Shown here: in pieces, positions 6,647 through 31,286 of the stretch
Layout: each line of letters begins with the position of its first letter
Position numbering within the stretch: position 1 is the stretch's first letter
From: Acaryochloris marina MBIC11017
Lineage (GTDB): Bacteria > Cyanobacteriota > Cyanobacteriia > Thermosynechococcales > Thermosynechococcaceae
Direction of reading: 5' to 3'
Length of the DNA stretch: 32,000 bases
Assembly (NCBI RefSeq): GCF_000018105.1
Contig: NC_009925.1
Span: 780,001-812,000, forward strand
The notes under the pieces: model-generated
The model's input: the letters and a program-made list of their open reading frames with translations, nothing else
What the model was told of the DNA's origin: nothing
Database searches by the model: none
Translations under genes and position numbers: made by a program

Positions 6647-6883
6647 GTAGCCGCCCATCCCAATCTTTGCTGGATGGCTTCTGATCCAGACGCGTTGCTT
6701 GTTCCAAAGCCCCTTTCTCTTTGGCTCGTTGGTCATAGGGGTGGAGCTGTTCAAGTATCTATCCTGTCAATAAGCACAAATTATCGAGGGTCACTCCCCA
6801 CATCAGCATATCGATGCACCAGGTTTGTTGGGCCTGTTCCAGACAAGGGGGGTGACCTACTAAGGTGGACATCTCTTCCGTCC
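6560..6883. repeat. Left copy of a ~320-bp diverged direct repeat (crp 3' end, short spacer, 3' end of the TetR-family gene)
   Basis: By-eye alignment with 20342-20657. The crp-derived part is about 70-75% identical. The tetR-derived part is about 89% identical (about 26 differences in about 235 nt). The repeat is also visible in the ORF track: antisense ORFs 6674..6898 (MASDPDALLVPKPLSLWLVGHRGGAV) and 20448..20726 (MASDLDALLVLKPLFLWLVGHRGGAV) begin almost identically. Confidence 0.85.
6650..6883 (-). pseudogene. Decayed 3' fragment (~75 codons) of a paralogue/orthologue of the TetR-recombinase-like gene at 20434..21645
   Basis: The minus-strand translation is TEEMSTLVGHPPCLEQAQQTWCIDMLMWGVTLDNLCLLTG*ILEQLHPYDQRAKEKGALEQATRLDQKPSSKDW. 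The intact gene reads TEGMTTLAGHPPHLEQAQQTWCIDMLMRGVTLDNLSLLTGWTLEQLHPYDQRAKEKAALEQATRLDQKPSSKD*. The fragment has an in-frame TAG where the intact gene has TGG, its natural stop is mutated to TGG, and it has no 5' part. Confidence 0.75.
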
Positions 6884-6961
6884 CATCTCATTGTATGAAA
6901 GGCGATAGGAGCTTATATTCGAGAGAGAATATCAGTGCCTGCTTGAATAGGGAAGCTTGTA

Positions 6962-9900
6962 ATGAGAACTCATCAATACGTTCATAAGAAACGAGCCGCC
7001 CAGTCTTCCTATAACCCTGTTCCTCGATCTTCTAAAGTTCAGTCTTCAGTGCAGCCTCCGGCAATTCAAGCCAAGTCGAATGAAGAGGGTTTAGCTGAAC
7101 ATGCTGAGCGGTTGAGAAAGTTCCAGCGGCTGGGTACTTCAATGATACAAATGGGTCCACCCAGACTCGGGAATGATGAGTCCAGTCCATTACACCCAAA
7201 ACCCTGGCTTCAACGGAAATTGACGCTTGGGCAGCCAGGAGATAAGTATGAACGAGAGGCAGATCGGATTGCATCTCAAGTAGTGCAAACCATAAATCCC
7301 CCTGCTTCAAAAGAAAACATTATTAGGCAGTCGATTCAGCGCGAGAACGACTTAGAAGGGGTAATGTCCGCGAAAGGCTTTCAAGCTGCTATCCAGCGAA
7401 AGCAAGCAATAGCAGGTGGAGAAGCATCATCGGATTTAGAGTCTGCTATCAATAAAGCGAGAGGGAGTGGACAACCATTGAATGCAGGGTTGCAACAGTC
7501 AATGGGTCAGGCGATGCGTGCAGATTTTAGTGGGGTAAGAGTACATACAGATACTCAGTCAGACCAGTTAAATCAATCGATTCAGGCTCAGGCATTTACG
7601 ACGGGGCAAGATGTTTTTTTTCGACAAGGGGCATATCAGCCTGAAAATCAAGCAGGGCAGGAGTTGATTGCCCATGAGTTGACCCATGTCATTCAGCAGA
7701 ATTCTGGAGCGGTGAGAAGGCAACGTCAGTTTAGAAAAAATGATGAACTGCTGCATGGTCAATTTGAGGCAAACGTTAAACCAATGCAGCTTCAACCCAA
7801 TGGTCAATCTACTGATCTCCAAAAGGTTACGCCTGAGCAGAGGAAAGGTCGCCTGGAAGACTTAAACAACATCGATCTGTCAGATGTACAAGTCCTACAG
7901 CAAAGGCAAGGGCGAATAAACCCCATAATGCAGACCCATTACCCTGCGGCAGAGGGAGAGGCCAAATTTATAGAGGCAAAAACAGACCTTATTCAAGGAT
8001 TTACCCCTTCTGATCGGCCCTTCTTAAAAACTAGCCCTGATATGGTGCAGATGGACCGTAAAGAAAAAGTCGATCTTCTCAACCTGACAGTCGGAGAATT
8101 CGAAACCCATCGGAAGGCTGAGCAGATGGACTGGGCCAACGTGAAGAAATTTACAAAAAAAGAACGCAACACCATCTGGCAAATTATCGACTGGCGGCTG
8201 AACGGCTTAGACCCATTCATACTCAAGGATGTCGTTGACAAAGGTAAAAATAGTATAAAAAACCTCCGTAATATGAAGGCCTATTGTGACGGACTCAATG
8301 GCGAACTTAATGGGCAGAAAACCGTTCGACTGGCACCACAGACTACATTGGAAAAAGCCATCTACTACGGACACTGGCTTCAAAAAATTCATGGTCTCCT
8401 TGGGAAACGAACCGAGCTTGTTGTACCGACGAATGTATTCACTCAGTTAGTTGACACTGATTCTGGCAAAGTTGCTGAGGCTTTCATCAAGTACTTCAAT
8501 GAGATGAATCCCAACCTACAAACCCCTTCGGGCAAAGAAATTACATCTTTCATCAAACTTATGCATGAAGAAAAAGCCAAGATCGGGGATTACAAGAACG
8601 TTCTAAAAGACATTCGAAACTTTCATAAGTTTCCCAAGGAATCGCTTGATAAGCTAAAGGCTGATCTGTCCGTAAAGGACAAACCACTAACTCTTATTTT
8701 GCATTCTCTTTACGATCATAATGGCGCTTTTATTCGCCATGAGCATGTTAACAAGGTCATCAAAAACGACAAAATTAAGGTTTATCTCATTGAGGGTCAT
8801 GCTATAGAGAAGGTAAAATCTCTCATCCGTGGTGGATTCCAAGAACTAGCGAAGAAGTATGGCCTTGACGGCAAAATCACTCAGGTTATGGCCGTTGGTC
8901 ACGGTGAATCTACCGAGATTGAATTCGCTGGTGGCGGTACAGAAGTTACTGAAGACGGGGGCAAGACGTCGATCGATCAGAAAGATGTAGTTCCGATAGA
9001 ATTAGAAGGAACAAACGCGCGTGTCTTTGCCCTGTTCTTTGAACAAATTTTCGCCAACATGGAAGAGAAGAAGGGGCTGAAGCCCAAGGTGTTGTTGCGT
9101 GCTTGCCTAAGTGCATCGAATGAGGTTGACGAGAATAAGCTTAAGGAGTTGATGAAAAAAGAGAACATCCTTGATCTTGATGCGGTGGTTGATACAAAAA
9201 CTGCCGAAAATCAGGAAAAGATTCGAGAAGGCATTAGGAAGTACATTGAGAAGCATGGAAGTCTTGCCACAAAATTGGGCGACCAAGCCAAAGGGAGAGC
9301 GGAGGTTCTTGGAGCCCAGTCCTCAATTACATCAGTTGATACAGGTGCAATCAAAGAAGATACTGGCGAGTTGGATTTTATTACACTAGCTGATCCTCAT
9401 GTTGCTGGCCCAAAACTCACTTATGTTCGTCATGGTAAAGAGCCTTCTGGTGCCCTTAGAGCAGTTATTGAGAGCTGGGCAAACGATCCAGTTACTTGCT
9501 TCGCAGAAATGCAGGACCGCATTGATACGGTTCTAGTTAACAGTCATGCAGAGTTCATTATTAACCTTCTCTACCATACATTACTAACCCAGTATAAGAG
9601 TGACATCCTTACAGCAAACAAGTTCACTAAAACAGCCCATGTGCTTATGGGTGTCTTAGAAGGTAAAGATGGCTGCCGCTCTGCCAGACTGGCTGCGGAT
9701 GATATGAGTAAAAAGCACCGTGACGCTTTTTATCCGTTGCTTATTACACATATTACACAGTTTGGGAATGATGCTAGGCCAAAACTTGTGATCTACCAGG
9801 ACTGGATGCTTCATAATGACACTAAGCGCAATAACTTTATGGCGATGCTGGGGATACCCGGCTGTACAAGAACCATAGCCGACAAATACCTTGATTTCGC

Positions 9901-10429
9901 ACTCATCAAGGACTCAGTTGAAACTCTCGTAAAAATGACGGCAGCTCCCATGAAGGCTCGGGTTTTGCTGGCACTATGTGGCTTGATTCGTCAGAACCCA
10001 ATCGAGTCTTGTAAAACCTTTCTTTTGACTCAAGTTAAAGGGGACAACTCCTTAAAGAAAAGCATTACTGATGAGTTAGATGGTTATTCAGTATCTAAGC
10101 TTCGTGACAAACTCGACTTAGAGGAAGAAATCGCGCAACCTGACTCAACCGCTGCCCATCCCAAAAATGTTGGTGGTGAAGGCGAATTTCACGTTAAGCC
10201 GATTAAAACAAAAGTTGAAAAAATAAAAAAAAGCACCCGTAAAAACCAGGCTAAATCACGCATTGAGCCTCGTCAGGATGCCAAAGTCGCGTTAACGCTA
10301 ACCCAAAAGAAGAACTACCATATTGTTGGTGAAGTCGTGAACACTGATGACACTAAAACGGGGTGGTATATGCTCAGGTTGAGTGCCGGGAAAATTGCCT
10401 ATATCGAGCAGAAGTATTTTAGCAATTAG
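6962..10429 (+). CDS. Large multidomain polymorphic-toxin-like protein: DUF4157 (HExxH 'PVC-metallopeptidase') prefix, ~900-aa unknown region containing a His/Cys clan-CD-like module, and an SH3b-like C-terminus
   Basis: 1155-aa ORF. DUF4157 hallmarks span about aa 85-246: LQRKLTLGQPGDKYEREADRIASQVV, then GQPLNAGLQQSMGQAMRADFSGVRVHTDTQSDQLNQSIQAQAFTTGQDVFFRQGAYQPENQAGQELIAHELTHVIQQ. The HELTH codons are at nt 7673-7687. No signal peptide is present. The C-terminus KNYHIVGEVVNTDDTKTGWYMLRLSAGKIAYIEQKYF resembles a bacterial SH3 domain. Confidence 0.85.
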   Translation: MRTHQYVHKKRAAQSSYNPVPRSSKVQSSVQPPAIQAKSNEEGLAEHAERLRKFQRLGTSMIQMGPPRLGNDESSPLHPKPWLQRKLTLGQPGDKYEREADRIASQVVQTINPPASKENIIRQSIQRENDLEGVMSAKGFQAAIQRKQAIAGGEASSDLESAINKARGSGQPLNAGLQQSMGQAMRADFSGVRVHTDTQSDQLNQSIQAQAFTTGQDVFFRQGAYQPENQAGQELIAHELTHVIQQNSGAVRRQRQFRKNDELLHGQFEANVKPMQLQPNGQSTDLQKVTPEQRKGRLEDLNNIDLSDVQVLQQRQGRINPIMQTHYPAAEGEAKFIEAKTDLIQGFTPSDRPFLKTSPDMVQMDRKEKVDLLNLTVGEFETHRKAEQMDWANVKKFTKKERNTIWQIIDWRLNGLDPFILKDVVDKGKNSIKNLRNMKAYCDGLNGELNGQKTVRLAPQTTLEKAIYYGHWLQKIHGLLGKRTELVVPTNVFTQLVDTDSGKVAEAFIKYFNEMNPNLQTPSGKEITSFIKLMHEEKAKIGDYKNVLKDIRNFHKFPKESLDKLKADLSVKDKPLTLILHSLYDHNGAFIRHEHVNKVIKNDKIKVYLIEGHAIEKVKSLIRGGFQELAKKYGLDGKITQVMAVGHGESTEIEFAGGGTEVTEDGGKTSIDQKDVVPIELEGTNARVFALFFEQIFANMEEKKGLKPKVLLRACLSASNEVDENKLKELMKKENILDLDAVVDTKTAENQEKIREGIRKYIEKHGSLATKLGDQAKGRAEVLGAQSSITSVDTGAIKEDTGELDFITLADPHVAGPKLTYVRHGKEPSGALRAVIESWANDPVTCFAEMQDRIDTVLVNSHAEFIINLLYHTLLTQYKSDILTANKFTKTAHVLMGVLEGKDGCRSARLAADDMSKKHRDAFYPLLITHITQFGNDARPKLVIYQDWMLHNDTKRNNFMAMLGIPGCTRTIADKYLDFALIKDSVETLVKMTAAPMKARVLLALCGLIRQNPIESCKTFLLTQVKGDNSLKKSITDELDGYSVSKLRDKLDLEEEIAQPDSTAAHPKNVGGEGEFHVKPIKTKVEKIKKSTRKNQAKSRIEPRQDAKVALTLTQKKNYHIVGEVVNTDDTKTGWYMLRLSAGKIAYIEQKYFSN

Positions 10430-10554
10430 CAACGGTGATTTTAGGCCAATTTTGATAATTAATTTGGAAATATTAACGATTTAGGCCTTCATCTTATGAT
10501 TAAGTCAGTGAAATTCTTTGAGGTTTAGTCTAGTGACCATCTAGAGGCTCATAA

Positions 10555-11454
10555 ATGGAAATTACACTCGACCAGAAAACGACATGGCACCTAGGTGGAG
10601 AGGCTCATGTACTTCATCTCTTAAGGTTAGTTGCCCAAATCAATGATGAAAATTGGTCTGCTGTCAGCGTTGTGCTTGAATGTGCCCCTGTTATCGCTGC
10701 GAGAGGTGAAGAACTGAGCTGGTTTCACAACCGCCTGGAGAGTCGCCTTGATTGGCAAAATCGGCCATTTCTGGAAGATCTGCCTGTTCGGATGGAGATT
10801 GCATTGAGGCCCGAGTACTATCCTCGCTTGCCTTGTCCAAGTTCTGATGCAGTGCAACGTCTCACTGACCTATTTGTAATTGAGCCACCCCCTTCTCCTG
10901 AACTATTCGATGATGCGGTCTGGAATGCGATACAGCTCTGGCAAGAGTACCCTATCGATCCATCGATTGGTGGTGGTACGATGCGGGTTGGCTATCGAAC
11001 AGCGTTTTCTATGTTCACTGACGAGGTTGATCGACTTCGTCGCCGGGGCCCAGTCTCTCGTATTATCGTCGATGCGTTGATTGAGTCTGGTATTCCGATC
11101 TCTTGGATTGAGGAGGATCCGGTTTTTACTGTTACGCTCTATGCTGAAGACCGTGGCTATCTCTGTCGAATTCGTCCCAACGAGTCTTCTTCTGGGATAA
11201 CTGTCAGTGTGGAATGGATAGAGCAGCTCTCTGATGCTGGGGTCGCAAAACTTTCATCACATATTGCTGTAGCTGATACTGACCTCGTTTTCGGTTCCTT
11301 GACTCTAGTCGATGGGCGAATTCGCCTTGATAACCTAACCCTATTAGGGCCGTCTATTACGGAGGAAACGATTATCGAAACTTTGCGTGCTGCAGTATCA
11401 GCTCTCAATAGCAAGGTCAATGAGTGGTCAGAGTTAGATCTCACGGCGGGTTAA
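10555..11454 (+). CDS. Hypothetical protein; candidate immunity protein or chaperone for the upstream toxin-like protein (C-terminal half resembles the YbjN / type III secretion chaperone-like fold)
   Basis: 299-aa ORF, co-directional and 125 nt downstream of the 1155-aa gene. The C-terminal half (RIIVDALIESGIPISWIEEDPVFTVTLYAEDRGYLCRIRPNESSSGITVSVEWIEQL...SLTLVDGRIRLDNLTLL) has the alternating pattern I associate with YbjN/CesT-like proteins. This is a pattern impression only. Confidence 0.65.
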   Translation: MEITLDQKTTWHLGGEAHVLHLLRLVAQINDENWSAVSVVLECAPVIAARGEELSWFHNRLESRLDWQNRPFLEDLPVRMEIALRPEYYPRLPCPSSDAVQRLTDLFVIEPPPSPELFDDAVWNAIQLWQEYPIDPSIGGGTMRVGYRTAFSMFTDEVDRLRRRGPVSRIIVDALIESGIPISWIEEDPVFTVTLYAEDRGYLCRIRPNESSSGITVSVEWIEQLSDAGVAKLSSHIAVADTDLVFGSLTLVDGRIRLDNLTLLGPSITEETIIETLRAAVSALNSKVNEWSELDLTAG

Positions 11455-11461
11455 CCCAAGG

Positions 11462-11575
11462 AATCTGTCAAGACCGGTTAGCGGCTGTTTGAAGCGGCTG
11501 CAGGACAGACCACTGAGATCCGGGACCGGGCCATTCTCTATTAGGGTTCATGCCGGGATAGAGAAATTTTTTCTC
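11462..11575 (+). pseudogene. Short decayed remnant of a tyrosine-recombinase gene (copy B), also the left copy of a nested direct repeat
   Basis: The core 11488-11539 (tttgaagcggctgcaggacagaccactgagatccgggaccgggccattctct) matches 20246-20297 at 46/52 positions by my count. It translates as FEAAAGQTTEIRDRAILY*. RDRAIL is the start of recombinase box I. Flanking homology is weaker. Confidence 0.45.
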
Positions 11576-11600
11576 ACAGAATAGCTGTGAACTATATTTA

Positions 11601-13297
11601 GGGCTTGCTTCGGAAGTCTAAGTTCCAATATTTGCAGTGTATCCAAGTGTTGAGGGCCCTTGAGAAGTGCAAGGAAAATCATTCAAAATATTTAAAACCC
11701 TTGCACCTGCAACCCGATGTATCGCCGTCCATCCCCCGGTCAACTGTCCTTTGAGAACTTCTACTTGCCCTTTGGAGGGAAACTTTCAGGAGAGAATCGC
11801 TGGGTCAAACTAGCCGAGTTGATTCCTTGGGAGAGCTTTGAGTCAGAATATGCAGACCAATTCAGTCAGACCATGGGGGCACCTGCCAAACCCTTTCGTG
11901 TGGCCTTAGGGACCTTAATCATCAAAGAGAAACTGGGTATATCCGACGCAGAGACCGTAGAACAGATTCGAGAGAACCCCTACTTGCAGTACTTTCTGGG
12001 GTTTAGTGAATATCGAGAGAGTGCTCCGTTTGATGCCTCCATGCTGGTTCACTTTCGCCAACGGTTGAATCTAGAGCTGCTAGCTCAAGTCAATGACGCA
12101 GTCGTGGACTCTGTGCTGGCATCCGAGGGGTCTCCTGTGGCGATGTCCCCTGAGTCATCTCCTCCCTCTGACGATGATGAAGATGAGCCTCCTGCCCCTC
12201 CCAACCAGGGCCAATTGTTGATAGATGCGACCTGTGCACCAGCCGATATTCGCTATCCGACAGACTTGGATTTGCTCAATGATGCCCGCAAAGCAAGCGA
12301 AGCCATCCTCGATGCTTTATATGCTCAAGTCATGCTGTCCCTCAAGTGCAAACCTCGCACCTACCGCCAGAAGGCCCGCAAAGCCTATCTGGCCATTGCC
12401 AAAAAACGTCAACCGAGCCGCAAGCTGATTCGTAAAGGGATTCGTCAGCAGTTGGGCTATGTGCGTCGCAATCTAGCCCATATTGATGGGTTGATAACAT
12501 TGGGGGCTTCCCTATCCCAATTGTCCCGGCGGCAGTACCGTCTGTTGCTGGTGATTCATGAAGTCTTTCGACAGCAAGAATGGATGTATCAACAGTCAGT
12601 ACGTCGAGTGGACGACCGGATTGTCAGTATGAGTCAGCCTCATGTCCGACCGATGGTCCGAGGCAAAGCTGGAACACCCGTTGAGTTTGGAGCCAAGCTA
12701 TCCCTCAGTTGTGTGCGTGGATGTGTGTTTCTGGAGCGCTTGAGTTGGGATGCGTTCAATGAATCCCAGCATCTTCAACATCAAGTGGAAGCCTTTCGTC
12801 GTCGCTTTGGCCATTATCCTTTCTCAGTCCATGCTGACCAAATCTATCGGACTCGGGCTAATCGACGATGGTGTAAAGCTCGGGGGATTCGCTTGAGTGG
12901 ACCGCCGTTAGGAAGACCTCAACAAGACCCACAAGTACAGACCCAACTCAAGCAACAAGCGTGTGAGGATGAAAAGGTGAGGGTCCAGATTGAGGGTAAG
13001 TTTGGGCAGGCCAAGCGACGGTTTGGCTTGAATCGAGTGATGGCGAAGTTAGCGGATACGGCTGCCAGTGCGATTGCTATCACGTTCTTGGTCATGAATC
13101 TGGAGCGGTGGCTCAGCCACTTTTTATCGTTCATTTTTGGGGTGGGATTGCTGGTTTTGGAAAGCGTTATGGAGCTGTCAGGACTTCCTTGGGGCTTTGC
13201 TAGGGCCAGTCAAAGGATATGGCTCTGGCCGTCACAAATGGGTTGCTTGTACGATTTGATGCATGGAATTTGCTCAATTTACTTTCTCAGCAAACCC
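11601..13297 (+). mobile_element. IS5/IS1182-like insertion sequence (~1.7 kb)
   Basis: Terminal inverted repeats are IRL 11601-11617 gggcttgcttcggaagt and the reverse complement of IRR 13281-13297, gggtttgctgagaaagt (13/17 matches). TATTTA directly abuts both ends (11595-11600 and 13298-13303) as a perfect direct repeat, consistent with a 6-bp target-site duplication. One DDE transposase ORF fills the element. Confidence 0.75.
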
Positions 13298-13336
13298 TAT
13301 TTAGCAGTACTTTTCAGACTTCGAATTTACAAGTAA
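11717..13336 (+). CDS. DDE transposase, IS5/IS1182-like (N-terminal DUF772-type domain plus DDE_Tnp_1-type catalytic domain)
   Basis: N-terminus SFENFYLPFGGKLSGENRWVKLAELIPWESFE. Candidate DDE residues lie in LLIDATCAPADIRYPTD, VHADQIYRT and VQIEGKFGQAKRRFGLNRVMAKL. The reading frame crosses the IRR, and its stop (13334-13336) lies about 39 nt outside the inferred element end. Confidence 0.9.
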   Translation: MYRRPSPGQLSFENFYLPFGGKLSGENRWVKLAELIPWESFESEYADQFSQTMGAPAKPFRVALGTLIIKEKLGISDAETVEQIRENPYLQYFLGFSEYRESAPFDASMLVHFRQRLNLELLAQVNDAVVDSVLASEGSPVAMSPESSPPSDDDEDEPPAPPNQGQLLIDATCAPADIRYPTDLDLLNDARKASEAILDALYAQVMLSLKCKPRTYRQKARKAYLAIAKKRQPSRKLIRKGIRQQLGYVRRNLAHIDGLITLGASLSQLSRRQYRLLLVIHEVFRQQEWMYQQSVRRVDDRIVSMSQPHVRPMVRGKAGTPVEFGAKLSLSCVRGCVFLERLSWDAFNESQHLQHQVEAFRRRFGHYPFSVHADQIYRTRANRRWCKARGIRLSGPPLGRPQQDPQVQTQLKQQACEDEKVRVQIEGKFGQAKRRFGLNRVMAKLADTAASAIAITFLVMNLERWLSHFLSFIFGVGLLVLESVMELSGLPWGFARASQRIWLWPSQMGCLYDLMHGICSIYFLSKPYLAVLFRLRIYK

Positions 13337-13713
13337 TTGATAGTCCATTCTTTTGGGGGAATGAATATCCATAAGGGTTCCCCGGCCAAATAAAATTACA
13401 GCATTTGAATATGGGAAAGTCAGTGTCACTCGTATTGGCATGATGGCCATTTGCAAGTGTGAAATTTAGTTTTTAACTAGGTTCTAGCGATTTGATCATA
13501 GATAGCCCCCCGGCCATTATGAGCCCTAAGCTGAGCAAGATAACGAGAAGAGGGGGGCATCAGAGACTATTCTTGAATTATGCAAACCAGGAGTGCAGGC
13601 GACCATTAGAATCGCTGAAAACAGTGGAACTCAATGGTCAATGGCAACAGCTCTGATTTCTGCAAACCGCTGCGGAGTATGAAAACCCAGAACAATTTAC
13701 AGATGGGATATTA

Positions 13714-14934
13714 TTAACTCTTAACTGTTTTGCATTGCAATGCGACCAGTAAATCAGAGCCCATTTTTTCTGCAATACTACGCCCTGGGCACTCACGCCG
13801 CTTCGCTTCACCTACTGAGTTAAAGCTGAGTGCTGCCAATAGGTTGTCTCGATGAGGATTGAAGTCTAAGGGGTTCTCAAAGACCGTACTGTCTAGATTA
13901 GCCAACCCGATGTTTGCGGAGAACAGCGTACCCTTGGGAAACTTACGTTTTCGGCCATTGATGGTCACCTCTGTTTCTGTCTGGGCAATGGTATTGATGT
14001 TATTCACTGGCGAGTGTCGACGAGCTGTTTCTAAAACTACTCGCAACACTTCATGACGATTATCTACATCGATCTCCAGATCGCGTGGAACCTTGGCTAT
14101 TAAGGACCGGAGTAAACTCTCACTACCTAGACATCCTGCAATTGCGATCGCTTCCAGTAGCAAAGTACTCAGTTCTGTTCGACTTAAATCATTTTCAGTG
14201 GTTGGAACATACCTACTCATAACAGGAGAGTTCTCAATCAGGTTAAGGGCGATCCCTTCTAATCGTTTAACTTCCTGCAACTTATTAGCAGATGGGGCTA
14301 AAGGTTTCACCCTTGAGATCAGCAATGATTCCTTTGGTTTTGAGGAGAAGAATAGCGTTTTTAGAGATGATAGTTGCTGTGGAGAAAGTTTGACTTCTAA
14401 TAGCACTAACATGATGTATTGGATGACAGTGCGTTGAATGTCATCGCTAATGTCATCTAAAGCCGGAGGATTTCCATGTTGATTAGCAATGGTGGCTAAC
14501 TGATTCAACAGATCTTTAGCTTCTTGGGACTCAGTATTATCAAAGGCTGGTTTAAAAACGACCTCTAAAACGGCTGATCTTGCTTTTTTATGAGTAGTAT
14601 CACCCTTTACTTCTTTATCAGACAGAAAAAGCAAAAAATTCTTAGAGAATCGATCAGGAATGCAGCGAAAACGGCCAATATAAGGTTCTCTTTGTTGGGG
14701 CTCTGCAATGATTTTTGCAGCAAGATTATATTCACCCACAATAATTCTGCCTAAAGCCGCAAAGTTCTGGCCAAAAAGCTGTTGTCTTTTACCTAAAAAT
14801 TCTTGAGGAGTAACAATACTATAACTAATAACATCCACTACATAGAAAAACCTCATAAGCATTGTAGTTAGGATGTTAGGGTGCCGCAATAGACAAATTT
14901 GGATACGGTTTGAGAAACGAATTAATAAACTCAT
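13714..14934 (-). CDS. Divergent cytochrome P450-like haem-thiolate protein (candidate fatty-acid hydroperoxide-converting enzyme)
   Basis: ExxR motif in VVLETARRHSPV and a PERF-like FNPHRD. The Cys-ligand loop is SFNSVGEAKRRECPGRSIA, which is FxxG...CxG with 4 extra residues compared with the canonical FGGSNRRCLG of the P450 at 24662..26026. The I-helix position reads IAGCLGSES and lacks the acid-alcohol (E/D-T) pair. The gene is AT-rich and lies 230 nt downstream of, and co-directional with, the lipoxygenase gene. The start codon is uncertain (M1, M24 or M26). Confidence 0.6.
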   Translation of the reverse strand: MSLLIRFSNRIQICLLRHPNILTTMLMRFFYVVDVISYSIVTPQEFLGKRQQLFGQNFAALGRIIVGEYNLAAKIIAEPQQREPYIGRFRCIPDRFSKNFLLFLSDKEVKGDTTHKKARSAVLEVVFKPAFDNTESQEAKDLLNQLATIANQHGNPPALDDISDDIQRTVIQYIMLVLLEVKLSPQQLSSLKTLFFSSKPKESLLISRVKPLAPSANKLQEVKRLEGIALNLIENSPVMSRYVPTTENDLSRTELSTLLLEAIAIAGCLGSESLLRSLIAKVPRDLEIDVDNRHEVLRVVLETARRHSPVNNINTIAQTETEVTINGRKRKFPKGTLFSANIGLANLDSTVFENPLDFNPHRDNLLAALSFNSVGEAKRRECPGRSIAEKMGSDLLVALQCKTVKS

Positions 14935-15164
14935 AGCTGCCCCATTAATTTATCAACAGAATTGCAAAACATGGTAGTCCTAGAGAAGTAATGACAGGAG
15001 AGGAACATCCTTTATGGCTAGAACTTCTAGGATTCAAACTCTTGAAAAGAGCTTAGCGAAAGGAACAAATTCTGGATAAGCCATTTTGGGAAATGGCCTG
15101 ATTGGTCGGCGTTACCCTTTTTTGGCCAGATCTGAACAAAGCCCTTGATTGGAGAAAGTCAAAC

Positions 15165-17183
15165 TCAGATGTTAATACTCTGAGGGATTTTATTAGGATG
15201 TAGGAAATCATAAAAGGTTGGGCGAACACTGTTCCGTTCATCAATGATGATGCCAATGGCATCTAACTGTTGCTGAAATGCTTTGAGTAGAGGTTGCACC
15301 CTAGTATCCGTAAAGTGCTCTTCTCCATATTCCCCTAATAGGGTGTAGTAAAGAGAACCCAACAAATAGGTCATATCCATCTGGGTCTCTGCCTGTTTCA
15401 GGGAAGGAAGAAGGTTGAAATAGTCTTGAGTGGTTGCCTTTGTTGACTTTGGCGCGGGTCGATATCCCGCTAAAGGCAAGTTGGGGATATAGGTCATATA
15501 AGTCGATTGGGAGAAGTTCACGGCTGCATGTTGGGCACTCCCTGTAAAAATAATGAGCGTCACCATATCTGCCAAGTAAGCTTTAGTGCGCAAGCTAGGT
15601 TGCTCCTGATCCGATGCGGTTTCCCCAATTTCTGTCATGCGCCCTCCGTCTTGAGCGACCATTTCTGCTAACCAAGCTTGGAGTTCGGTGTCCTCTACCA
15701 CATCCTGATCGCTGAGGTAATACAAGTCTAGATAGCTCTCAACCCAATCGTGAATCGCATTCCAAACGAGTAGTGCATCATCTCGATAGGGATAGTCAGG
15801 AAGCTGATCCACATTATCGACCCCCCGTCTGGAGAGTGTGGCGGGTAGCATCGAATCATTAAAACCGTAGGGGAACCCTTGTACGGCTTTAACGCTGAGC
15901 TCTTTAGAAGATTCAATAGTGCCAGACATCACTGAATCCACGGTACCTCCATCATTAACAAGGCCAGAAATGGCTGCATTATTAATAAACAATGTTCCTT
16001 CAAAATGAGGACGCAATAAGGCGCTGAGGGGATGATTAGGGGCCAGTTGACGATAGGTAGCCACTACAATGGGCTCGATCAATAAGTGGGTCCGACCGAG
16101 ATGAGAAATGAGCTCATGGTAATTGCCATCAGCGATTTGAACGATGGTTTTTGCCATCAGCCAAGCCCATTGCTCGGACTGGGGGCTACCCTCAGGGGGT
16201 GGAGTGAAAATAGGATTATCAGAGCCTGGCTGCTGCTGGCACTGAATGGCTACGGCTGTGAGGGAGCCGCTTCCTTCCGCAGGTACTGCAAACAGGGCGA
16301 GGGGAGCATAGACATATTTTTGAGCATCCGGAAAAGTGCCCGGTTCTAATAGGTTCAACACTGCATAATCAGTGATATAAAGTCGCCCCTCTGCTCCAGC
16401 CTTTTGGAGAGAATCAGCAGTTCCCATCACGGCCTGATATTGATCGTTAGTGACAGGGAAGTGGTCTGGTAATCTCTTGCATTGTTCTAGAACTAAAGGG
16501 TTCGCTCCCGCAACTCGCTGGGCGACAAAGGCTCGATCTGTCCAGAACTGTTGGCTAATACAAGGCAAATAAATAATCTGAAACAGATCGTTATAGGCTT
16601 GAAAGAGTTGGCTGTAGTCTGACAAACTGTCTTGGGCTTGCTTAGCCTGCATAGCTAAAGCTTGATGGTCGAGCTTCTGCTGCTCTTGAGCATGGTCTCG
16701 GGGATCTTTGACCTCAGAGATTAATGTTTCCAGTAACGGCTGGTGGATATCGTTCACTTTGGCCGAGGGGGTTTGGGAACTGTTTTGCTCAATGGAGGGT
16801 GGTTTGCCATCTTGCAAGCGTTGAACCAACCGAATAATTGGCAGAACTTTGGCTAACAAAAACTTCAAAAAGCCAGCACGTTTAGGGTTATTCAAGAAAC
16901 GGGTGACACGGGTAAGCCAGGCAAATCGGCGGAGTTTTCGGACAGAACCTGTTTCATTAACGTCTTGTAAAGCTTGGTTAGCATCTATTCTCAGCAGCAG
17001 AGATAAGGCATCTTGAAGCCAAGGAAATTTGCCAAGGGATTGATCTTGTGGGGGCACTTTCTCGGCCATTGCCCCGCCATTAGGGAGGTAAGTGTAGTTA
17101 TAGCGATAGTCTCGACGAGCAGCCACTAAAGCCGTTTGCCGTTGAACAGGATTGGAATCATTTTGAGGTAGAGAGATATTCAT
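15165..17183 (-). CDS. Lipoxygenase (bacterial type, no PLAT domain)
   Basis: Iron-ligand motifs WLMAKTIVQIADGNYHELISHLGRTHLLIEP (HxxxxH) and GSAQHAAVNFSQSTY (H...N). The C-terminus IPQSINI ends in the Ile that supplies the carboxylate ligand. The track ORF begins at a TTG at 17204; the first ATG is at 17183 (MNISLPQ). Confidence 0.95.
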   Translation of the reverse strand: MNISLPQNDSNPVQRQTALVAARRDYRYNYTYLPNGGAMAEKVPPQDQSLGKFPWLQDALSLLLRIDANQALQDVNETGSVRKLRRFAWLTRVTRFLNNPKRAGFLKFLLAKVLPIIRLVQRLQDGKPPSIEQNSSQTPSAKVNDIHQPLLETLISEVKDPRDHAQEQQKLDHQALAMQAKQAQDSLSDYSQLFQAYNDLFQIIYLPCISQQFWTDRAFVAQRVAGANPLVLEQCKRLPDHFPVTNDQYQAVMGTADSLQKAGAEGRLYITDYAVLNLLEPGTFPDAQKYVYAPLALFAVPAEGSGSLTAVAIQCQQQPGSDNPIFTPPPEGSPQSEQWAWLMAKTIVQIADGNYHELISHLGRTHLLIEPIVVATYRQLAPNHPLSALLRPHFEGTLFINNAAISGLVNDGGTVDSVMSGTIESSKELSVKAVQGFPYGFNDSMLPATLSRRGVDNVDQLPDYPYRDDALLVWNAIHDWVESYLDLYYLSDQDVVEDTELQAWLAEMVAQDGGRMTEIGETASDQEQPSLRTKAYLADMVTLIIFTGSAQHAAVNFSQSTYMTYIPNLPLAGYRPAPKSTKATTQDYFNLLPSLKQAETQMDMTYLLGSLYYTLLGEYGEEHFTDTRVQPLLKAFQQQLDAIGIIIDERNSVRPTFYDFLHPNKIPQSINI

Positions 17184-17610
17184 AAGACCAAATGTGACTA
17201 ACAACAGCGTGAGGGGAAAAGGTTTAGGGGAAAACGATGAAAGCTACTTCAAAAAGGTAGAAACTAAAAAAAAATGGCGAAAAGTAATTAATTTCTTCTG
17301 ATTTTGTCCATTACTGGGGTGTATCCAGTTTTTATAGGAGATGCATGGGCAGTAGGAGAGTGAATTCAGGTAATTGTGATTCTCTACAGCAGGAATGTAA
17401 ATAGGTAGATAAGGGGACCGTCTACCACAGAACTAAGCGTACTTTTACTGCACTAAAAATGGCGTGATCTATATCAAAGTTTCCCTGAATAATTTTCTAA
17501 TTTATTGACTTTATAATTCTGGAGGTAACTGACCAAGAAAATTATTAGGAGTGGTTATATAAGTTGATTAAAGTTGCAATATTAATTTCTACATTTTTCC
17601 TTTCCTGTTA

Positions 17611-17865
17611 TTAAGCAGCCTGGAATATTTCTGCGATTTCACTAACACCGCTGATGAATTTTTTTCTTTTTTCAGATAGAGACACGAATTCTGCGATATG
17701 ACTGCGAGATCTCAAAACGTGACTCACCTCATCTACGGCTTTGCAGAAAAGGCACTTCCGGGGGTTAGTACTCCACTGGATATTGTCTGGTGGAGTACTA
17801 ACCCGTACTCTTGCCTCTTGACTACTGATAGACACTGACAAAGAGGGTTGCACCGGGTTGATCAT
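17611..17865 (-). CDS. Hypothetical small protein (84 aa), questionable
   Basis: Its only ATG start overlaps the 3' end of the lysozyme/LDT gene by 44 nt in another frame. The one notable feature is a CxxC pair (CLFCK). No recognisable family. Confidence 0.3.
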   Translation of the reverse strand: MINPVQPSLSVSISSQEARVRVSTPPDNIQWSTNPRKCLFCKAVDEVSHVLRSRSHIAEFVSLSEKRKKFISGVSEIAEIFQAA

Positions 17866-19327
17866 ACAAAGGCACCACTTTGTCTCTTAAATCTTGGTTA
17901 TGCATTCTAATGCAGCCTAGGGTGGAGAAAAGAGCTTGCTTTGGTGCCCAAGCTCCTGGCCATCCGCAACCGCTGCCGCCGCCGTGGAGCATAATGCCTG
18001 CCCGACCCAGGTTGGCTTCTTGGTTTTCGAGTTCAACTAAATCGAGACTATACCAGCCATAAGACATGCGATCGCGGGTATAGGCAGAACTTTCACCCGC
18101 TTGCTCATAGTCGCGATAAATTTGCCCACATTTGTAAAGACCGGCGGGGGTATCCCCATGACGGCCAAAGTAATTGTCCTCAAACTGACCACGACAGAGA
18201 CAGGTCAATTCCCACATTAGCGTGCCGCTATAGTCGTAACACTTGATCTTGCCAACGGCATCATTGGCCACCAGATGGTAGTCTCCGGGCTTAAAGCCAT
18301 GGGCATCCGGATGGGACTTGGGACCTTTCATCCCTGCAATAATATTGGCTTGGCGAGGACCAGCCGATGGGGTGGGTTGCGAGACGGTTATCGTTGGTTC
18401 AAAACCTACTACCCTCGGTGGGTTTGTTTTGAGTCGCTGTTCAATGGGTTCGCAATCCTGGGCCGTTTGAATTTCCTGGGCAGCGGCGGCACAGGCGGTG
18501 GTCGGTGCTTCGCCACACCAGACTTTGGCCTCGGCATATCGACGGCGACCCAGCCCCACTTCCACATTTTCGCTGGGGTTGCGATACATCATCAGGGTGC
18601 CGGGAACCGCCTGCCAATCTTTGTCTTTTAAGTTGCGGGTGATGGTTCTATGGTTCGGTGATCCATAAAAATCAGCACCATTGTTATAGGCAAAGCTGGT
18701 CAGTGCGGCTCGTTGTAGATCAGTCATGTCGTCCCAATAAGGGATGGTCGATTGCAGCTTGAGCCAAAAATCTTTGTGGCAAATATAGTCGTACAGGTCA
18801 TCTGCTTCAGCTTGGGTGATGATATCTCCCATTTGGATGGCTGACCCATTTTTATAGTAGGTACTGCCCCAACCGATGGTGACGGGTAAGCCCCCACTGC
18901 CAGCCCTTGGATCCGGGTAAGCTTGGATTCGCCCGTCCGGTAATTTCCGTTGACAGCCTTCGTAAAAGTGGTTGAGTTGGGCTACTTCCGGCGGTAATAA
19001 CGGAGCAGAGGGAGTCTCTGGTTGAGAGGGAGTAGAAGCTGGAGCCAGGGCAGAAACGGGCTGCTGTTCCCATGCATCTTCTGGAATATCCCATGAGATG
19101 GGATTGATATACCGTTTGACACCCGTTTCAATGGTTGGGTAATGGTCATGCCAGGTATAAGGCCCCGCCAAGATAATCTCAGCCAACTGTGAATTGACAG
19201 TAGACACTTTGATAACGCCTAAGATTCCCCCCTCATAGACTTTTGCGAGTTGATTTAATTTTTGAAGGTGGGGTTGGTGTGGTAGGGGTGCCAGGAGTGT
19301 ATTCTTTTTCGCTGTGATAAATGGCAT
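17822..19327 (-). CDS. Fusion protein: unknown N-domain, Pro-rich linker, GH24 (T4/lambda-type) lysozyme domain, YkuD-type L,D-transpeptidase catalytic domain
   Basis: GH24 catalytic region: NHFYEGCQRKLPDGRIQAYPDPRAGSGGLPVTIGWGSTYY (Glu, Asp, Thr triad pattern) followed by LTSFAYNNG. YkuD region: HGDTPAGLY...GIMLHGGG...STLGCIRMHNQDL. The catalytic Cys codon is the complement of 17912-17914. No signal peptide is present. Confidence 0.9.
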   Translation of the reverse strand: MPFITAKKNTLLAPLPHQPHLQKLNQLAKVYEGGILGVIKVSTVNSQLAEIILAGPYTWHDHYPTIETGVKRYINPISWDIPEDAWEQQPVSALAPASTPSQPETPSAPLLPPEVAQLNHFYEGCQRKLPDGRIQAYPDPRAGSGGLPVTIGWGSTYYKNGSAIQMGDIITQAEADDLYDYICHKDFWLKLQSTIPYWDDMTDLQRAALTSFAYNNGADFYGSPNHRTITRNLKDKDWQAVPGTLMMYRNPSENVEVGLGRRRYAEAKVWCGEAPTTACAAAAQEIQTAQDCEPIEQRLKTNPPRVVGFEPTITVSQPTPSAGPRQANIIAGMKGPKSHPDAHGFKPGDYHLVANDAVGKIKCYDYSGTLMWELTCLCRGQFEDNYFGRHGDTPAGLYKCGQIYRDYEQAGESSAYTRDRMSYGWYSLDLVELENQEANLGRAGIMLHGGGSGCGWPGAWAPKQALFSTLGCIRMHNQDLRDKVVPLYDQPGATLFVSVYQ

Positions 19328-19695
19328 TACCAGCCCTCCTGTAAAACGGCGGTTAATTCTTTCTCAGGGGTTTGGACCTTGATCACTTTGGATGTAGTTG
19401 AGACCATCTCGGTGGAAGGCACCGTTACAGTTGGAGATGCTGCTACTGTTGTTGGAACCGCTGAATTCAATACAGGCTTCTCGTCACGCTCGGAGAATTT
19501 TTGCAAGCCCTTCATACCTGCACCGCCAATGGTTAAGGCCCCGGTGAGGATGTAAAGGTTTTCGGAAAAGGTCTTCCCTCGCCATTCACCAGCGGCCAAA
19601 GTAATGGCGAGACCCAATCCCACTAATACTGATGCAGTGGTCTGCAGTCTGCCTGAGGATCGCTTACCTTTAGCATCTTGTAATATCCCGGTCAT
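19327..19695 (-). CDS. Small two-TM membrane protein, holin-like candidate
   Basis: The likely start is the ATG at the complement of 19693-19695 (MTGILQDAKGKRSSGR), preceded by AAGGAG 7 nt upstream. The track's longer ORF (to 19776) has no such RBS. TM1 is TTASVLVGLGLAITLAAG, TM2 is LYILTGALTIGGAGM, and the tail is hydrophilic. Its stop overlaps the start of the lysozyme/LDT gene (TAATG), which implies translational coupling. Confidence 0.6.
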   Translation of the reverse strand: MTGILQDAKGKRSSGRLQTTASVLVGLGLAITLAAGEWRGKTFSENLYILTGALTIGGAGMKGLQKFSERDEKPVLNSAVPTTVAASPTVTVPSTEMVSTTSKVIKVQTPEKELTAVLQEGW

Positions 19696-20094
19696 ACATA
19701 ATCTCCTTGAATAGCGATAGATGGTGTTGTGTTTTGCTGCAATCCTCTGATTTGTGCAGATATCCCTAAGACTCAAGACACGTATCGTTAGCCGATCTGG
19801 TGAAAGCTATTCGATACTTCAAATCAGTCTTCAAATTCTTGTGGCATTAGTCTATTTCCAAGAGAAATAGTGAATTAGCCCTAAGGATTGATTTGAGCTG
19901 ATTTCTATCTGAATTAGAGCACCCGTTTTAGGGGTATTCAGTGATATATGATGATTTTCAAGGTGATTGTGAGCACATTTTGTGTGTTCACTGTGGTTGA
20001 GACTGTAACCGTCTGGAGCAGACCTATTAACTAAAATTGCTCTGATGTACGGCTGCACACTGAAAAATGGTACAGCCGATAGTTGATGCAAGGC

Positions 20095-20341
20095 TCCGTG
20101 GGCGCTGTCTTGATCGCGATCAAGAGCTTCTTTTCCGGGTTGATAAAGGCAGGGTATATCGAGGGTAACCAGTGCAGCCATCAGTATTCCGGTTACGCCA
20201 GAAACGGAATGGAAGAACCTGGCATTGTTTCAGGTGGAAGCATTATTTGAAGCGGTTTCAGGCTAGGCCACTGAGATCCTGGACCGGGCCATTCTCTGTT
20301 TGATGATCTATGCAGGGGTAAGGGCTGAGGAAATCTCTCTT
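20095..20341 (+). pseudogene. Decayed tyrosine-recombinase (integrase) gene remnant (copy B'), truncated after box I
   Basis: One frame from about 20098 reads GAVLIAIKSFFSGLIKAGYIEGNQ, resembling the core-binding-domain helix (..LRSFY.YL...G.I..NP). After a frameshift the next frame reads AAISIPVTPETEWKNLALFQVEALFEAVSG*ATEILDRAILCLMIYAGVRAEEISLL. This matches the box I consensus RDRAIL.LL..TGLR..EL..L, including the catalytic Arg. It contains a stop and a frameshift and ends abruptly at the crp-fragment junction (20341/20342). Confidence 0.55.
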
Positions 20342-20418
20342 TTAGGCAATCTGCGGCAGGAGGGGTGGCTGTCCATCGACCGAACACGGCATTGCTGATG
20401 CCCCCTCAGAGAGTCTGT
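20342..20418 (+). pseudogene. Orphan 3' fragment of a crp/fnr-family gene
   Basis: It translates LGNLRQEGWLSIDRTRHC*, against LGLLRQEGWLTIDRTRHFVIADAPSESL* in the intact gene at 6008..6646. An 8-nt deletion relative to the intact copy causes the premature stop. Most nucleotide differences before the deletion are synonymous. Confidence 0.7.
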
Positions 20419-20657
20419 AGGTAGCCACCCAGCTCAATCTTTGCTGGATGGCTTCTGATCTAGACGCGTTGCTTGTTCTAAAGCCGCTTTTTCTTTGGCT
20501 CGTTGGTCATAGGGGTGGAGCTGTTCTAACGTCCACCCCGTCAATAAGCTCAAATTATCGAGGGTCACTCCCCGCATCAGCATATCGATGCACCAAGTTT
20601 GTTGGGCCTGTTCCAGATGGGGAGGGTGACCTGCTAAGGTGGTCATCCCTTCCGTCC
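20342..20657. repeat. Right copy of the ~320-bp diverged direct repeat (crp 3' fragment, spacer, genuine 3' end of the TetR-family gene)
   Basis: See the left copy (6560-6883). Homology ends at about 6883 / 20657 (tccgtcc, then the sequences diverge). Confidence 0.85.
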
Positions 20658-21645
20658 AGCTTTTCCACCGATCAGCCAGTGTTGTCGGCGTCAGGGGCTG
20701 TTGCTGATCATCCACAAACATTGTAGGTTCATCATCTTTGCGAGATTTTAGCCATTTGGTCAGGGGATTGGAAGTATAGGAGCCAACACGTTTCCCCATG
20801 ACCCACTGATTGACGGCTACCTGGCGGCTGGCCTGGATTTGCAGCAGATGCTGTTGATTATTGCTGATCTGTTGCGATCGCAATAACCCGATCACTTCGG
20901 GTGATGATAAACCTGCCCCAAATAAAACATAGGCCAGAGCATGATCTTGGGTACTCTGTTTCTTGGCTTGTCGGAGAATAAGATGAACGGTTTCCGCAGG
21001 CAAATCAGCCACGGTTGTGGGCTGTGGGGGAGAATCTCTGAAAGTGTCACTTGCAATACTGCCAAACAGGATCATCTGCACCGCATGCTCTAAAAAGTCG
21101 TCTTGGTGATGCCATAGCTGATGGTATTCACTGGTGAATTCGATAACGGCATACCCGAGCAGCAAGCATTCCAATAAGCTTGCCAGTTTTTCCGTTGAGA
21201 ACTGGGGGGTTAACTGCCGCTCAGCCATAAAGGATTCTAGATACTGAGCCATATATTGGGTGATTTCTGTCATCCGCTTTCCCAAGGCCAGTCGATTGTC
21301 GGCGGGGTATTGGTTGGCTTCTCCTACTAGAGATCGAATTAAATCAGGCACTTGCTCTAATGCATGCAAGCAATAACTTGCATATTCTTGAAAGGCTTGC
21401 TCCGTTGATGCAGCGGACTGATTTTGACGGTTCAGGGCCTGTCCCAGGCTCTGAAAAGCCGTTGACTCTTCTAAGACCCCCAATAAAAGGCCATGTTTAC
21501 TGCCGAAATGCCGAAACAGCGTCACTTCGTTCACTTCGGCGGCTTCAGCAATTTGGCGGGTGGTCGTTCCACTAATTCCTTGAGTAATAAAGAGCTGAAG
21601 AGCCGACTGAATCAAGCGTTGGCGAGTTGATGACTGAGAAGACAT
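20434..21645 (-). CDS. TetR/AcrR-family regulator fused to a C-terminal catalytically degenerate tyrosine-recombinase-like domain
   Basis: N-terminal TetR HTH: RQRLIQSALQLFITQGISGTTTRQIAEAAEVNEVTLFRHFGSKHGLL. The C-terminal ~200 aa follow the recombinase catalytic-domain pattern. The box I-like segment DHALAYVLFGAGLSSPEVIGLL has Ser where the catalytic Arg should be. The box II-like segment LEQAQQTWCIDMLMRGVTLDNLSLLTGWTLEQLHPY has Q..Q in place of H..R, GW in place of GH, and keeps the Tyr position. Confidence 0.9.
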   Translation of the reverse strand: MSSQSSTRQRLIQSALQLFITQGISGTTTRQIAEAAEVNEVTLFRHFGSKHGLLLGVLEESTAFQSLGQALNRQNQSAASTEQAFQEYASYCLHALEQVPDLIRSLVGEANQYPADNRLALGKRMTEITQYMAQYLESFMAERQLTPQFSTEKLASLLECLLLGYAVIEFTSEYHQLWHHQDDFLEHAVQMILFGSIASDTFRDSPPQPTTVADLPAETVHLILRQAKKQSTQDHALAYVLFGAGLSSPEVIGLLRSQQISNNQQHLLQIQASRQVAVNQWVMGKRVGSYTSNPLTKWLKSRKDDEPTMFVDDQQQPLTPTTLADRWKSWTEGMTTLAGHPPHLEQAQQTWCIDMLMRGVTLDNLSLLTGWTLEQLHPYDQRAKEKAALEQATRLDQKPSSKD

Positions 21646-30155: not shown

Positions 30156-31286
30156 TTAAAAGTCTACACCGCGTTTGAGATCAACGCCCTTCTCGGCATA
30201 GTGTTTGTGGCAAACCATCTCGGAATGGGTGCTGGCTAACTCAAAATAGGCGGGAGGGTTTTGGCAGCGCCCGGTGATGATGATTTCGGTATCTCGGGGT
30301 TTACGTAAAAAAGCCTGCATAATCGGTTCTTCCGGCAGAAGTTCCAGATCCACGGTGGGATTCAGCTCATCGAGAATAATGGTCTTGTAAAGACCGGATG
30401 CGATCGCTGCTCGGGCAATCTCCCAGCCTCGCTCTGCTTCTACATAATCAATCTCTTGCTGTTGCCCCCGCCACACAATGGCATCGCGACCACAACGCTG
30501 ATGATCCACCAGGTTGGGATAGCTTTGCTGCATGGCAGAAATGGCTGCATCTTCCGTATACCCAAGCCCACCTTTGAGCCACTGCATAATCAGAACCCGA
30601 TGGGATTGGTCTTGGCTAATACCACGACCAATGGCCTGAAGTGCTTTACCGAGAGCACTCGTAGACTTACCTTTACCAGATCCGGTATAAATTTCAATCC
30701 CTTCAATCCCTTGGCGAGTCCCTTCATGGGAGTGGGGTTTCATCTCGGAATGGAGATCGGCAACATTAAGCAGGCCTTGGGGTGTCCCTCTCCCTGTGGA
30801 GATCACTTCTAAATGGTCAGGTTTTTTGCGGAGCGACTGAACTACGTCATTGATGTCTAGGAGTCCTAAATCTAGAACCGGATTCAGCTCATCTAGAACT
30901 ACAACCGAGTAGAGACCGGATGCGATCGCACCTTTGGCAATATCCCATCCCCGTTGAGCTTCTTGGCGGTCAAACTTGGTGATATCGTCCGCCCCAAAGA
31001 ACTCAGCCCTTCCTGTTCGCACTTGATCAATTAAGTGGGGAAAGGCACGCTGTAAGGCTTCAATGGCAGCATCTTCAGCATAGGGACGGCCAGGCCCCTT
31101 TAAAAACCGTAGTAGTAGAACACGGGTCGGGAATGCAGACGCAATGCCTAAACCAATTGAACGTAATACCACCCCCAAGGCCGCTTGTGATTTGCCTTTG
31201 CCGGCTCCATCATAAACGTGAATTTGGCCAACAATACGTTCTGAGCGATCTTGGGCTGTATTGATACCAATCCCATTTCTGGCCAT
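30156..31286 (-). CDS. cobO: Cob(I)yrinic acid a,c-diamide / corrinoid adenosyltransferase (CobO/BtuR family), tandemly duplicated domain
   Basis: There are two complete halves, each with a P-loop and following motifs. First half: IHVYDGAGKGKSQAALG...VLLLRFLKG...VVVLDELN...VISTGRG. Second half: IEIYTGSGKGKSTSALG...VLIMQWLKGG...TIILDELN...IIITGRC. Each half resembles E. coli BtuR as I remember it. Confidence 0.88.
   Translation of the reverse strand: MARNGIGINTAQDRSERIVGQIHVYDGAGKGKSQAALGVVLRSIGLGIASAFPTRVLLLRFLKGPGRPYAEDAAIEALQRAFPHLIDQVRTGRAEFFGADDITKFDRQEAQRGWDIAKGAIASGLYSVVVLDELNPVLDLGLLDINDVVQSLRKKPDHLEVISTGRGTPQGLLNVADLHSEMKPHSHEGTRQGIEGIEIYTGSGKGKSTSALGKALQAIGRGISQDQSHRVLIMQWLKGGLGYTEDAAISAMQQSYPNLVDHQRCGRDAIVWRGQQQEIDYVEAERGWEIARAAIASGLYKTIILDELNPTVDLELLPEEPIMQAFLRKPRDTEIIITGRCQNPPAYFELASTHSEMVCHKHYAEKGVDLKRGVDF

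Follow-up and report, generated by a model that had tools for sequence, protein, structure and literature searches.

Tyrosine resolvases of plasmids and transposons, such as TnpI of Tn4430, resolve multimers or cointegrates. The Xer recombinases, among them E. coli XerD (PDB 1A0P) and archaeal XerA (PDB 4A8E and 5HXY), consist of a SAM-like and a catalytic domain, without an arm-binding domain of the lambda Int type. In integrative elements the integrase gene usually sits at the edge of the element. Campbell-type integration predicts a host duplication in direct orientation, intact outer genes and abrupt inner ends. For the genus Acaryochloris, gene flux between plasmids and the chromosome has been proposed earlier (PMC8949462, PMC3156569). 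The locus described here contains pieces of a dead recombinase gene in an island flanked by duplicated host DNA.

An island between crp and a tetR-like gene

The window, that is the whole 32,000-nt stretch of Acaryochloris marina MBIC11017 DNA that was analysed, carries the following features (with the evidence in parentheses):

6559-6883: outer repeat H, consisting of the 3' end of crp, a gene that is intact here (to 6646), a spacer and the decayed last ~70 codons of a tetR-like gene (6674-6883, minus strand) (repeat search, blastn against CCMEE 5410 (L001), empty-site alignment)
6884-20340: inserted island of about 13.5 kb (Pfam; empty sites in L004, L005 and L006; GC)
11485-11560, plus strand: remnant B, a 76-nt piece from the same recombinase family as B', ...LFEAAAGQTTEIRDRAIL... 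(blastn E 6e-12, tblastn E 5e-4)
11599-13299, plus strand: IS element with a DUF772 + DDE_Tnp_1_2 transposase (11717-13336) (Pfam; ends and comparison with CCMEE 5410)
20077-20340, plus strand: remnant B', an internal fragment of an Xer-like tyrosine recombinase gene (blastn and tblastn against intact plasmid genes)
20339-20342, plus strand: recombinase/crp junction, where ...GAAATCTCTCT meets crp ...CTTTTAGGCAAT with a 2-nt overlap (CT) (alignments)
20341-20657: outer repeat H', consisting of a decayed crp 3' fragment (20341-20420), a spacer and the 3' end of the tetR-like gene, which is intact here (repeat search, blastn, empty-site alignment)

On the crp side the island is preceded by ftsQ-like, ftsZ, prs, DUF3531 and ABC ATPase genes and by crp itself (6008-6646, plus strand); on the other side it is followed by the tetR-like gene (20434-21645, minus strand), a desaturase, a glutaredoxin and other genes. 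The island contains, in this order, an eCIS_core/DUF4157 gene of 1155 aa, its 299-aa partner, B, the IS, a P450-like gene, a lipoxygenase gene, an IS6 fragment, a lysozyme-YkuD gene, a 149-aa ORF and B'. Its GC content is 43-46% as compared with 47-50% in the flanks. Using the tetR-like protein in a related-locus search followed by tblastn mapping, three Acaryochloris MAGs (L004, L005, L006) were found in which crp and the tetR-like gene adjoin each other in convergent orientation, separated by about 45 nt; their outer neighbours are the same as in the window, and there is no recombinase. The empty site in these relatives shows that the island is an insertion. The architecture drawn up in an earlier note on this DNA (H, toxin pair, B, the block with the IS, P450-like, lipoxygenase and lysis genes, B', H') is real, and represents an insertion relative to the empty crp-tetR site. 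No features were detected in the window by tRNA and Rfam scans.

The locus is syntenic in CCMEE 5410 (93-98% identity), and the exact 299-aa protein is also encoded, with unchanged gene order, in AP026075.1, the chromosome of Acaryochloris marina MBIC10699. When a closer empty site was sought by means of identical Crp proteins, every longer contig either carried the island or broke within H. Among Logan assemblies with an identical Crp (L060-L066), many short-read contigs end ~100 nt past crp, within H. This is where an assembly is expected to break if the H/H' duplication is present, and the island is thus likely to be common in this clade of A. marina.

H (325 nt) and H' (317 nt) form a direct repeat of about 89-90% identity. 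At the positions where they differ, the functional half agrees with the outgroups, in a ratio of 20 to 1 for tetR and 8 to 2 for crp, and drift in the orphan halves amounts to 10-16%. Because the functional halves match the outgroups, both H and H' descend from host DNA. A foreign origin of either repeat was rejected, since it is the non-functional halves that hold the derived changes. The exception to this polarisation is the segment 6559-6570, where the ancestral state was kept by the crp fragment. The crp fragment of H' also has an 8-nt deletion (20390-20400), which is absent from CCMEE 5410 (L001 10310-10330). The inner ends of the island are abrupt; at one of them nucleotide 548 of the recombinase gene is joined to crp, inside the int ORF, and the sequence across this joint in the window reads GAGGAAATCTCTCTTTTAGGCAATCTGCGG; the other joint is at 6880-6895. 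A sensitive blastn comparison of H and H' with 6889-20080 revealed no third copy of H within the island (best E 1.7), and no crp-like sequence was found after B. Another direct repeat of the window, 105 nt long and 71% identical (30337-30441 and 30859-30963), encodes two tandem CobA/CobO/BtuR-like domains of a 376-aa gene (30156-31286) and is an ordinary domain duplication. Four ORFs that run across recognisable remnants or genes of the opposite strand were for this reason dismissed as spurious: 6674-6898 and 20448-20726 on the plus strand, 19852-20181 and 20193-20387 on the minus strand.

The crp/tetR gap is a variable region. In Acaryochloris sp. IP29b_bin.148 (L007 11230-19884) it holds a different insert of 8.7 kb, which has no H-type duplication. 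A Pfam scan of this insert revealed no recombinase; its genes are all of metabolic or regulatory type (glyoxalase, LysR, flavodoxin-like, isochorismatase, esterase, epimerase, response-regulator-oxidoreductase and cNMP-binding histidine kinase).

Several parts of the island resemble plasmid DNA. Genes of Acaryochloris plasmids match the 5' part of the DUF4157/eCIS_core gene with 80-84% identity, and the IS6 transposase fragment (17606-17748; ORF 17611-17865, minus strand) is 79-82% identical to IS6-family genes on such plasmids. This fragment, located between the lipoxygenase and lysozyme genes, is further debris of mobile elements. When PLSDB plasmids were searched by tblastn for a module accompanied by an intact int gene, the lipoxygenase, the lysozyme-YkuD protein and the 299-aa partner gave no match or distant matches only; a plasmid origin is therefore shown for parts of the island only. 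A donor plasmid with the int/crp joint was not found among PLSDB plasmids by blastn.

The lipoxygenase (679 aa) and the 406-aa protein following it (window 13714-17204, minus strand; L001 2275-7087) could form an oxylipin pair. The 406-aa protein matches cytochrome P450 around the heme-binding end only (E 4e-10), and its gene is split by a DDE_Tnp_1 IS in CCMEE 5410. The IS at 11599-13299, which lies near B without abutting it, is bounded by terminal inverted repeats (GGGCTTGC.../...GCAAACCC) and has a TA duplication. In CCMEE 5410 an IS occupies the same site in opposite orientation (L001 166-1863), with an identity of just 91.7% compared with 97.7% for the flanks. The opposite orientation and the drop in identity suggest either replacement or inversion via the terminal repeats, or an independent insertion at the TA target.

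The recombinase remnants and their intact relatives

The B' fragment is 260 nt long and corresponds to codons 95-184 of a gene of ~467 codons (gene nt 287-548). In blastn comparisons 20081-20340 matched the gene of an intact 467-aa protein on a plasmid of A. marina S15 (L002:4695-6098) at 215/262 positions (E 3e-65), and the intact gene of Acaryochloris sp. CCMEE 5410 with 84.7% DNA identity (E 1e-71); the DNA identity to intact Acaryochloris plasmid genes ranges from 82 to 85%. At the protein level the match to the intact plasmid gene had an E value of 5e-34 (tblastn). These results bear out the earlier proposal that 20095-20341 encodes pieces of a tyrosine recombinase, and the integrase peptides quoted in support of it are seen in the translation of 19900-20460. 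A tblastn search of PLSDB identified seven Acaryochloris plasmids with intact genes, annotated as 'tyrosine-type recombinase/integrase', that are 68-80% identical across the full B'. All seven plasmid matches start at base 20081 and end between 20337 and 20343, and this common start and narrow range of ends show that B' derives from the interior of the gene and is sharply bounded on both sides. That the remnant is cut where the crp fragment begins also proved correct, the homology stopping at 20340. In the initial, word-indexed protein search with B' the sole match was a 58-aa ORF of CCMEE 5410; the intact family was found later, by tblastn against plasmids.

With the domain limits taken from Pfam matches of the intact protein (SAM-like 42-128, catalytic 142-311), B' extends from the last core-binding helix of the SAM-like domain through the linker into the catalytic domain, of which it has the first 43 residues, the box I Arg among them, in agreement with the content ascribed to it before. 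This Arg (in AGVRAEE, about 20318-20335) is the only member of the catalytic set in B'. Comparison of the intact gene product with the window by tblastn revealed neither codons 185-467, which include H-x-x-R and Tyr, nor any further recombinase sequence besides B and B'. The window thus retains 19% of one recombinase gene (B') and 5% of another (B), both dead.

The reading frame of B', for which a frameshift and a stop had been reported, is broken three times: by TAG at 20080-20082, by a 2-nt deletion between 20170 and 20171 and by TAG at 20264-20266. The deletion and the TAG at 20264-20266 are shared by the CCMEE 5410 copy, showing that the recombinase gene was dead before the two strains diverged. 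In the CCMEE 5410 copy an 8-nt tandem duplication (GTATTCCG) restores the frame, and the product is annotated there as a 58-aa 'hypothetical protein'. B and B' are gene remnants and not functional recombinases.

In a profile check such as the earlier note suggested, the repaired 82-aa B' fragment alone matched PF00589 with an E value of 0.0058, below the cut-off. An intact relative matched both the SAM-like PF02899 (E 1.3e-10) and PF00589 (E 1.4e-19). The identification of B' as a tyrosine recombinase therefore derives from the strong evidence of the intact relatives and not from the fragment's own Pfam score.

The intact relatives are 398-670 aa long, and their best matches are the XerA, XerC and XerD NCBIfam models (E about 1e-32 to 1e-36) and the XerD/XerA structures. 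Their scores were 110-127 bits, compared with cut-offs of 220-335 for the Xer equivalogs. By these sequence measures the family is Xer-like in fold and layout and its members are not Xer orthologues. The family is cyanobacterial, and some members have a PRiA4_ORF3 C-terminal domain. Intact members, WP_261892244.1 of pREC3 among them, were located here only on Acaryochloris plasmids or plasmid-like replicons, on which split or fragmentary copies are also frequent. On pREC3 the intact gene directly precedes parA-parB, on pMB03 it is near a zeta toxin gene and parAB, and in CCMEE 5410 it lies, on a 416-kb replicon, divergent from fragments of a Tn3-family transposase; further copies are found beside unrelated genes (pentapeptide-repeat or Rpn). 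Judged by this neighbourhood alone, the family looks like a plasmid or transposon resolution enzyme rather than an island integrase.

A different relationship to tyrosine recombinases was noticed in the 403-aa 'TetR' protein (20434-21645, minus strand; orthologues in L004-L022). It is a fusion of a TetR_N HTH and a ligand-type domain with a C-terminal domain of ~190 aa, which is homologous to the catalytic domain of tyrosine recombinases. The profile of the C-terminal domain matched XerA (PDB 4A8E) across the whole domain (E 4.6e-5) and the XerC NCBIfam model (E 6e-4); with the plasmid int family hhalign gave a probability of 19%. In this domain the box I Arg is replaced by Ser, H-x-x-R by E-x-x-Q and His by Trp, and the Tyr is kept. 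The fusion is conserved in full length in genomes of Acaryochloridaceae, Thermosynechococcaceae, Phormidesmis and Drouetiella, always in divergent orientation to a Delta9-type desaturase gene. Its C-terminal part looks like a domesticated recombinase domain, predicted to be inactive, in a regulator.

Remnant B corresponds to gene nt 451-528 (codons about 151-176) with an internal 2-nt gap. It begins 31 nt past the stop codon of the 299-aa ORF and ends 38 nt ahead of the IS, and is 97% identical in CCMEE 5410. With the S15 plasmid gene it shares 61/78 positions (blastn E 6e-12; tblastn E 5e-4). The earlier observation of a second, shorter copy after the toxin partner gene was thus correct, as was that of a nested direct repeat: B and B' are both on the plus strand and are identical at 48/55 positions in an ungapped core and at 61/76 overall. 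The claim that the two copies end at the same relative point was not upheld. In the gene, the traceable homology of B ends at nt 528 and that of B' at nt 548, and the 38 nt that separate B from the IS (11561-11598) resemble the B'/crp junction no better than shuffled sequence does (588/2000 shuffles scored equally well). That the two ends lie within ~20 nt of each other in the gene is mildly suggestive.

Arrival of the island

We consider it reasonably probable that B and B' are debris that travelled with plasmid-type DNA, that their enzyme did not insert the island, and that the insertion was of the Campbell type or illegitimate. Plasmid-type DNA, including the DUF4157 toxin gene, the IS6 fragment and the dead recombinase pieces, would have entered the chromosome, and its insertion between the convergent crp and tetR-like genes would have duplicated about 320 bp of host DNA. 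Either a circle that had picked up a host segment could have undergone single-crossover homologous recombination, or a linear fragment could have been joined in illegitimately at its ends. One of the joints would have cut the recombinase gene at codon 184. A joint that cuts the gene was not made by the recombinase and is not its recombination site, and the 2-nt microhomology likewise points to an illegitimate joint. Each of H and H' runs outward into an intact gene and inward against foreign DNA, as single-crossover integration produces. From such features we infer that the island came from a plasmid, how it was inserted, and that the recombinase took no active part. Several points speak against passive debris: B' is located exactly at the edge of the island and reads toward it, as expected of the integrase of an integrative element; a later deletion that started inside an intact int and reached into a repeat then longer would leave the same arrangement, which keeps the integrase model of the earlier note alive at low probability; and a plasmid origin is shown for parts of the island only, no PLSDB plasmid with the int/crp joint having been found.

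How B and B' are related bears on these events. That B resembles B' by chance, B' being the sole true remnant, can be considered refuted already: B is short and Pfam gives weak evidence for the fragments by themselves, but over 75-78 nt B can be aligned with four independent intact genes (blastn E 6e-13 to 4e-12), and its translation LFEAAAGQTTEIRDRAIL stays in register with the intact genes in tblastn. Alternatively, the two could stem from one segmental duplication within the island, as copies of an already truncated pseudogene that were later trimmed and diverged. Their equal orientation, the equal part of the gene covered, three base states common to both and absent from all seven plasmid copies, and a divergence (20%) similar in order to the 10-16% by which the non-functional repeat halves have drifted would fit a duplication. 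We regard it nevertheless as doubtful, because over the common 76 nt B is as similar to the S15 plasmid genes L002 and L003 (79-80%) as to B' (80%), B' itself being 79-83% identical to them, because B retains ancestral states lost from B' (the CGG Arg codon and GCCGGG), and because the flanks of B and B' share no sequence on either side; moreover, 76 nt are too few to resolve the relationship. The data do not show B and B' to be closest relatives; by sequence they may have arisen from one duplication or be parts of two paralogues.

The model favoured in the earlier note, that this integrase brought the island in two successive integrations or with an internal duplication, makes the island one or possibly two tandem integrative elements inserted at crp/tetR by their own tyrosine recombinase, whose gene later decayed and was trimmed by deletion, B and B' marking the int ends of the two integrations. 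The model would explain why B' lies at the edge beside H' and points toward it, why B, in the same orientation, ends the toxin module, why the two remnants end so close to each other in the gene (a coincidence expected by chance in only a few percent of cases, by our estimate), and why the crp/tetR gap is variable, and the empty site in L004, L005 and L006 is what an integrative element would leave in relatives. We find it unlikely, however. The borders are the 317/325-nt crp/tetR duplication, decayed host DNA, not a short conserved att core repeated at both ends; the joint itself cuts the int ORF; no third border repeat, or trace of one, lies between the modules, either beside B or across the IS, as tandem integration would require; and B is no nearer to B' than to the intact plasmid genes. 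The other insert at crp/tetR (L007) is without a recombinase. In the collections searched, no intact recombinase adjoined the crp/tetR junction in any locus fetched, CCMEE 5410 having identical lesions at the identical place, and the intact orthologue that was to be looked for there was met with on plasmids and plasmid-like replicons only. An Xer-like family that resides on plasmids, sometimes beside parAB, and not at island borders fits plasmid maintenance better than island integration. The suggestion that the island is now immobile is plausible as far as site-specific excision is concerned, yet H and H' could still recombine homologously. It is also conceivable, and in our view very improbable, that the fragments mark the limits of modules. 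The toxin pair, and likewise the oxylipin and lysis genes, would then each have come in as the cargo of a circle whose Xer-like gene was interrupted at ~nt 530-548 by captured host DNA, the island resulting from repeated plasmid-to-chromosome transfer via one recombination-prone spot. If true, this would mean a recurrent route of gene flow in Acaryochloris and not a one-off accident.

Under the reading preferred here, passenger debris of plasmid-type DNA, the remnants correct the story of the island's arrival, giving no sign of mobility driven by an integrase. What they indicate is exchange of the chromosome with the many large plasmids of Acaryochloris, and later decay that took place before the split of MBIC10699 and CCMEE 5410. 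The island, a mosaic that probably derives from plasmids, would then be a small, concrete and ordinary example of the gene flux proposed for the genus, without revealing a new mechanism.

Comparison with known systems

In their two-domain layout the intact relatives of B and B' agree with XerD and XerA, aligning from end to end with both (E 1.4e-17 for XerD); like Xer, they lack an arm-binding domain of the lambda Int type. Unlike Xer, they have a C-terminal extension of 150-350 aa, are plasmid-borne and multi-copy, and score far below the equivalog cut-offs. They resemble the tyrosine resolvases of plasmids and transposons in the proximity of intact genes to parAB (pREC3, pMB03), a zeta toxin gene and Tn3-family fragments; they differ in that other copies neighbour unrelated genes, and the neighbourhood is what suggests a resolvase role.

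With integrase-bearing islands whose int gene has decayed, the locus shares a foreign block at a fixed site, direct repeats, a recombinase pseudogene at the edge and a lower GC content. It departs from them in its ~320-bp host repeats spanning two gene ends, in an int gene cut by the junction and in having no tRNA nearby. Campbell-type integration accounts for the arrangement seen here, with the direct-orientation host duplication, the intact outer genes and the abrupt inner ends; the donor circle that it involves was not found, and a linear fragment joined between staggered breaks would yield the same product.
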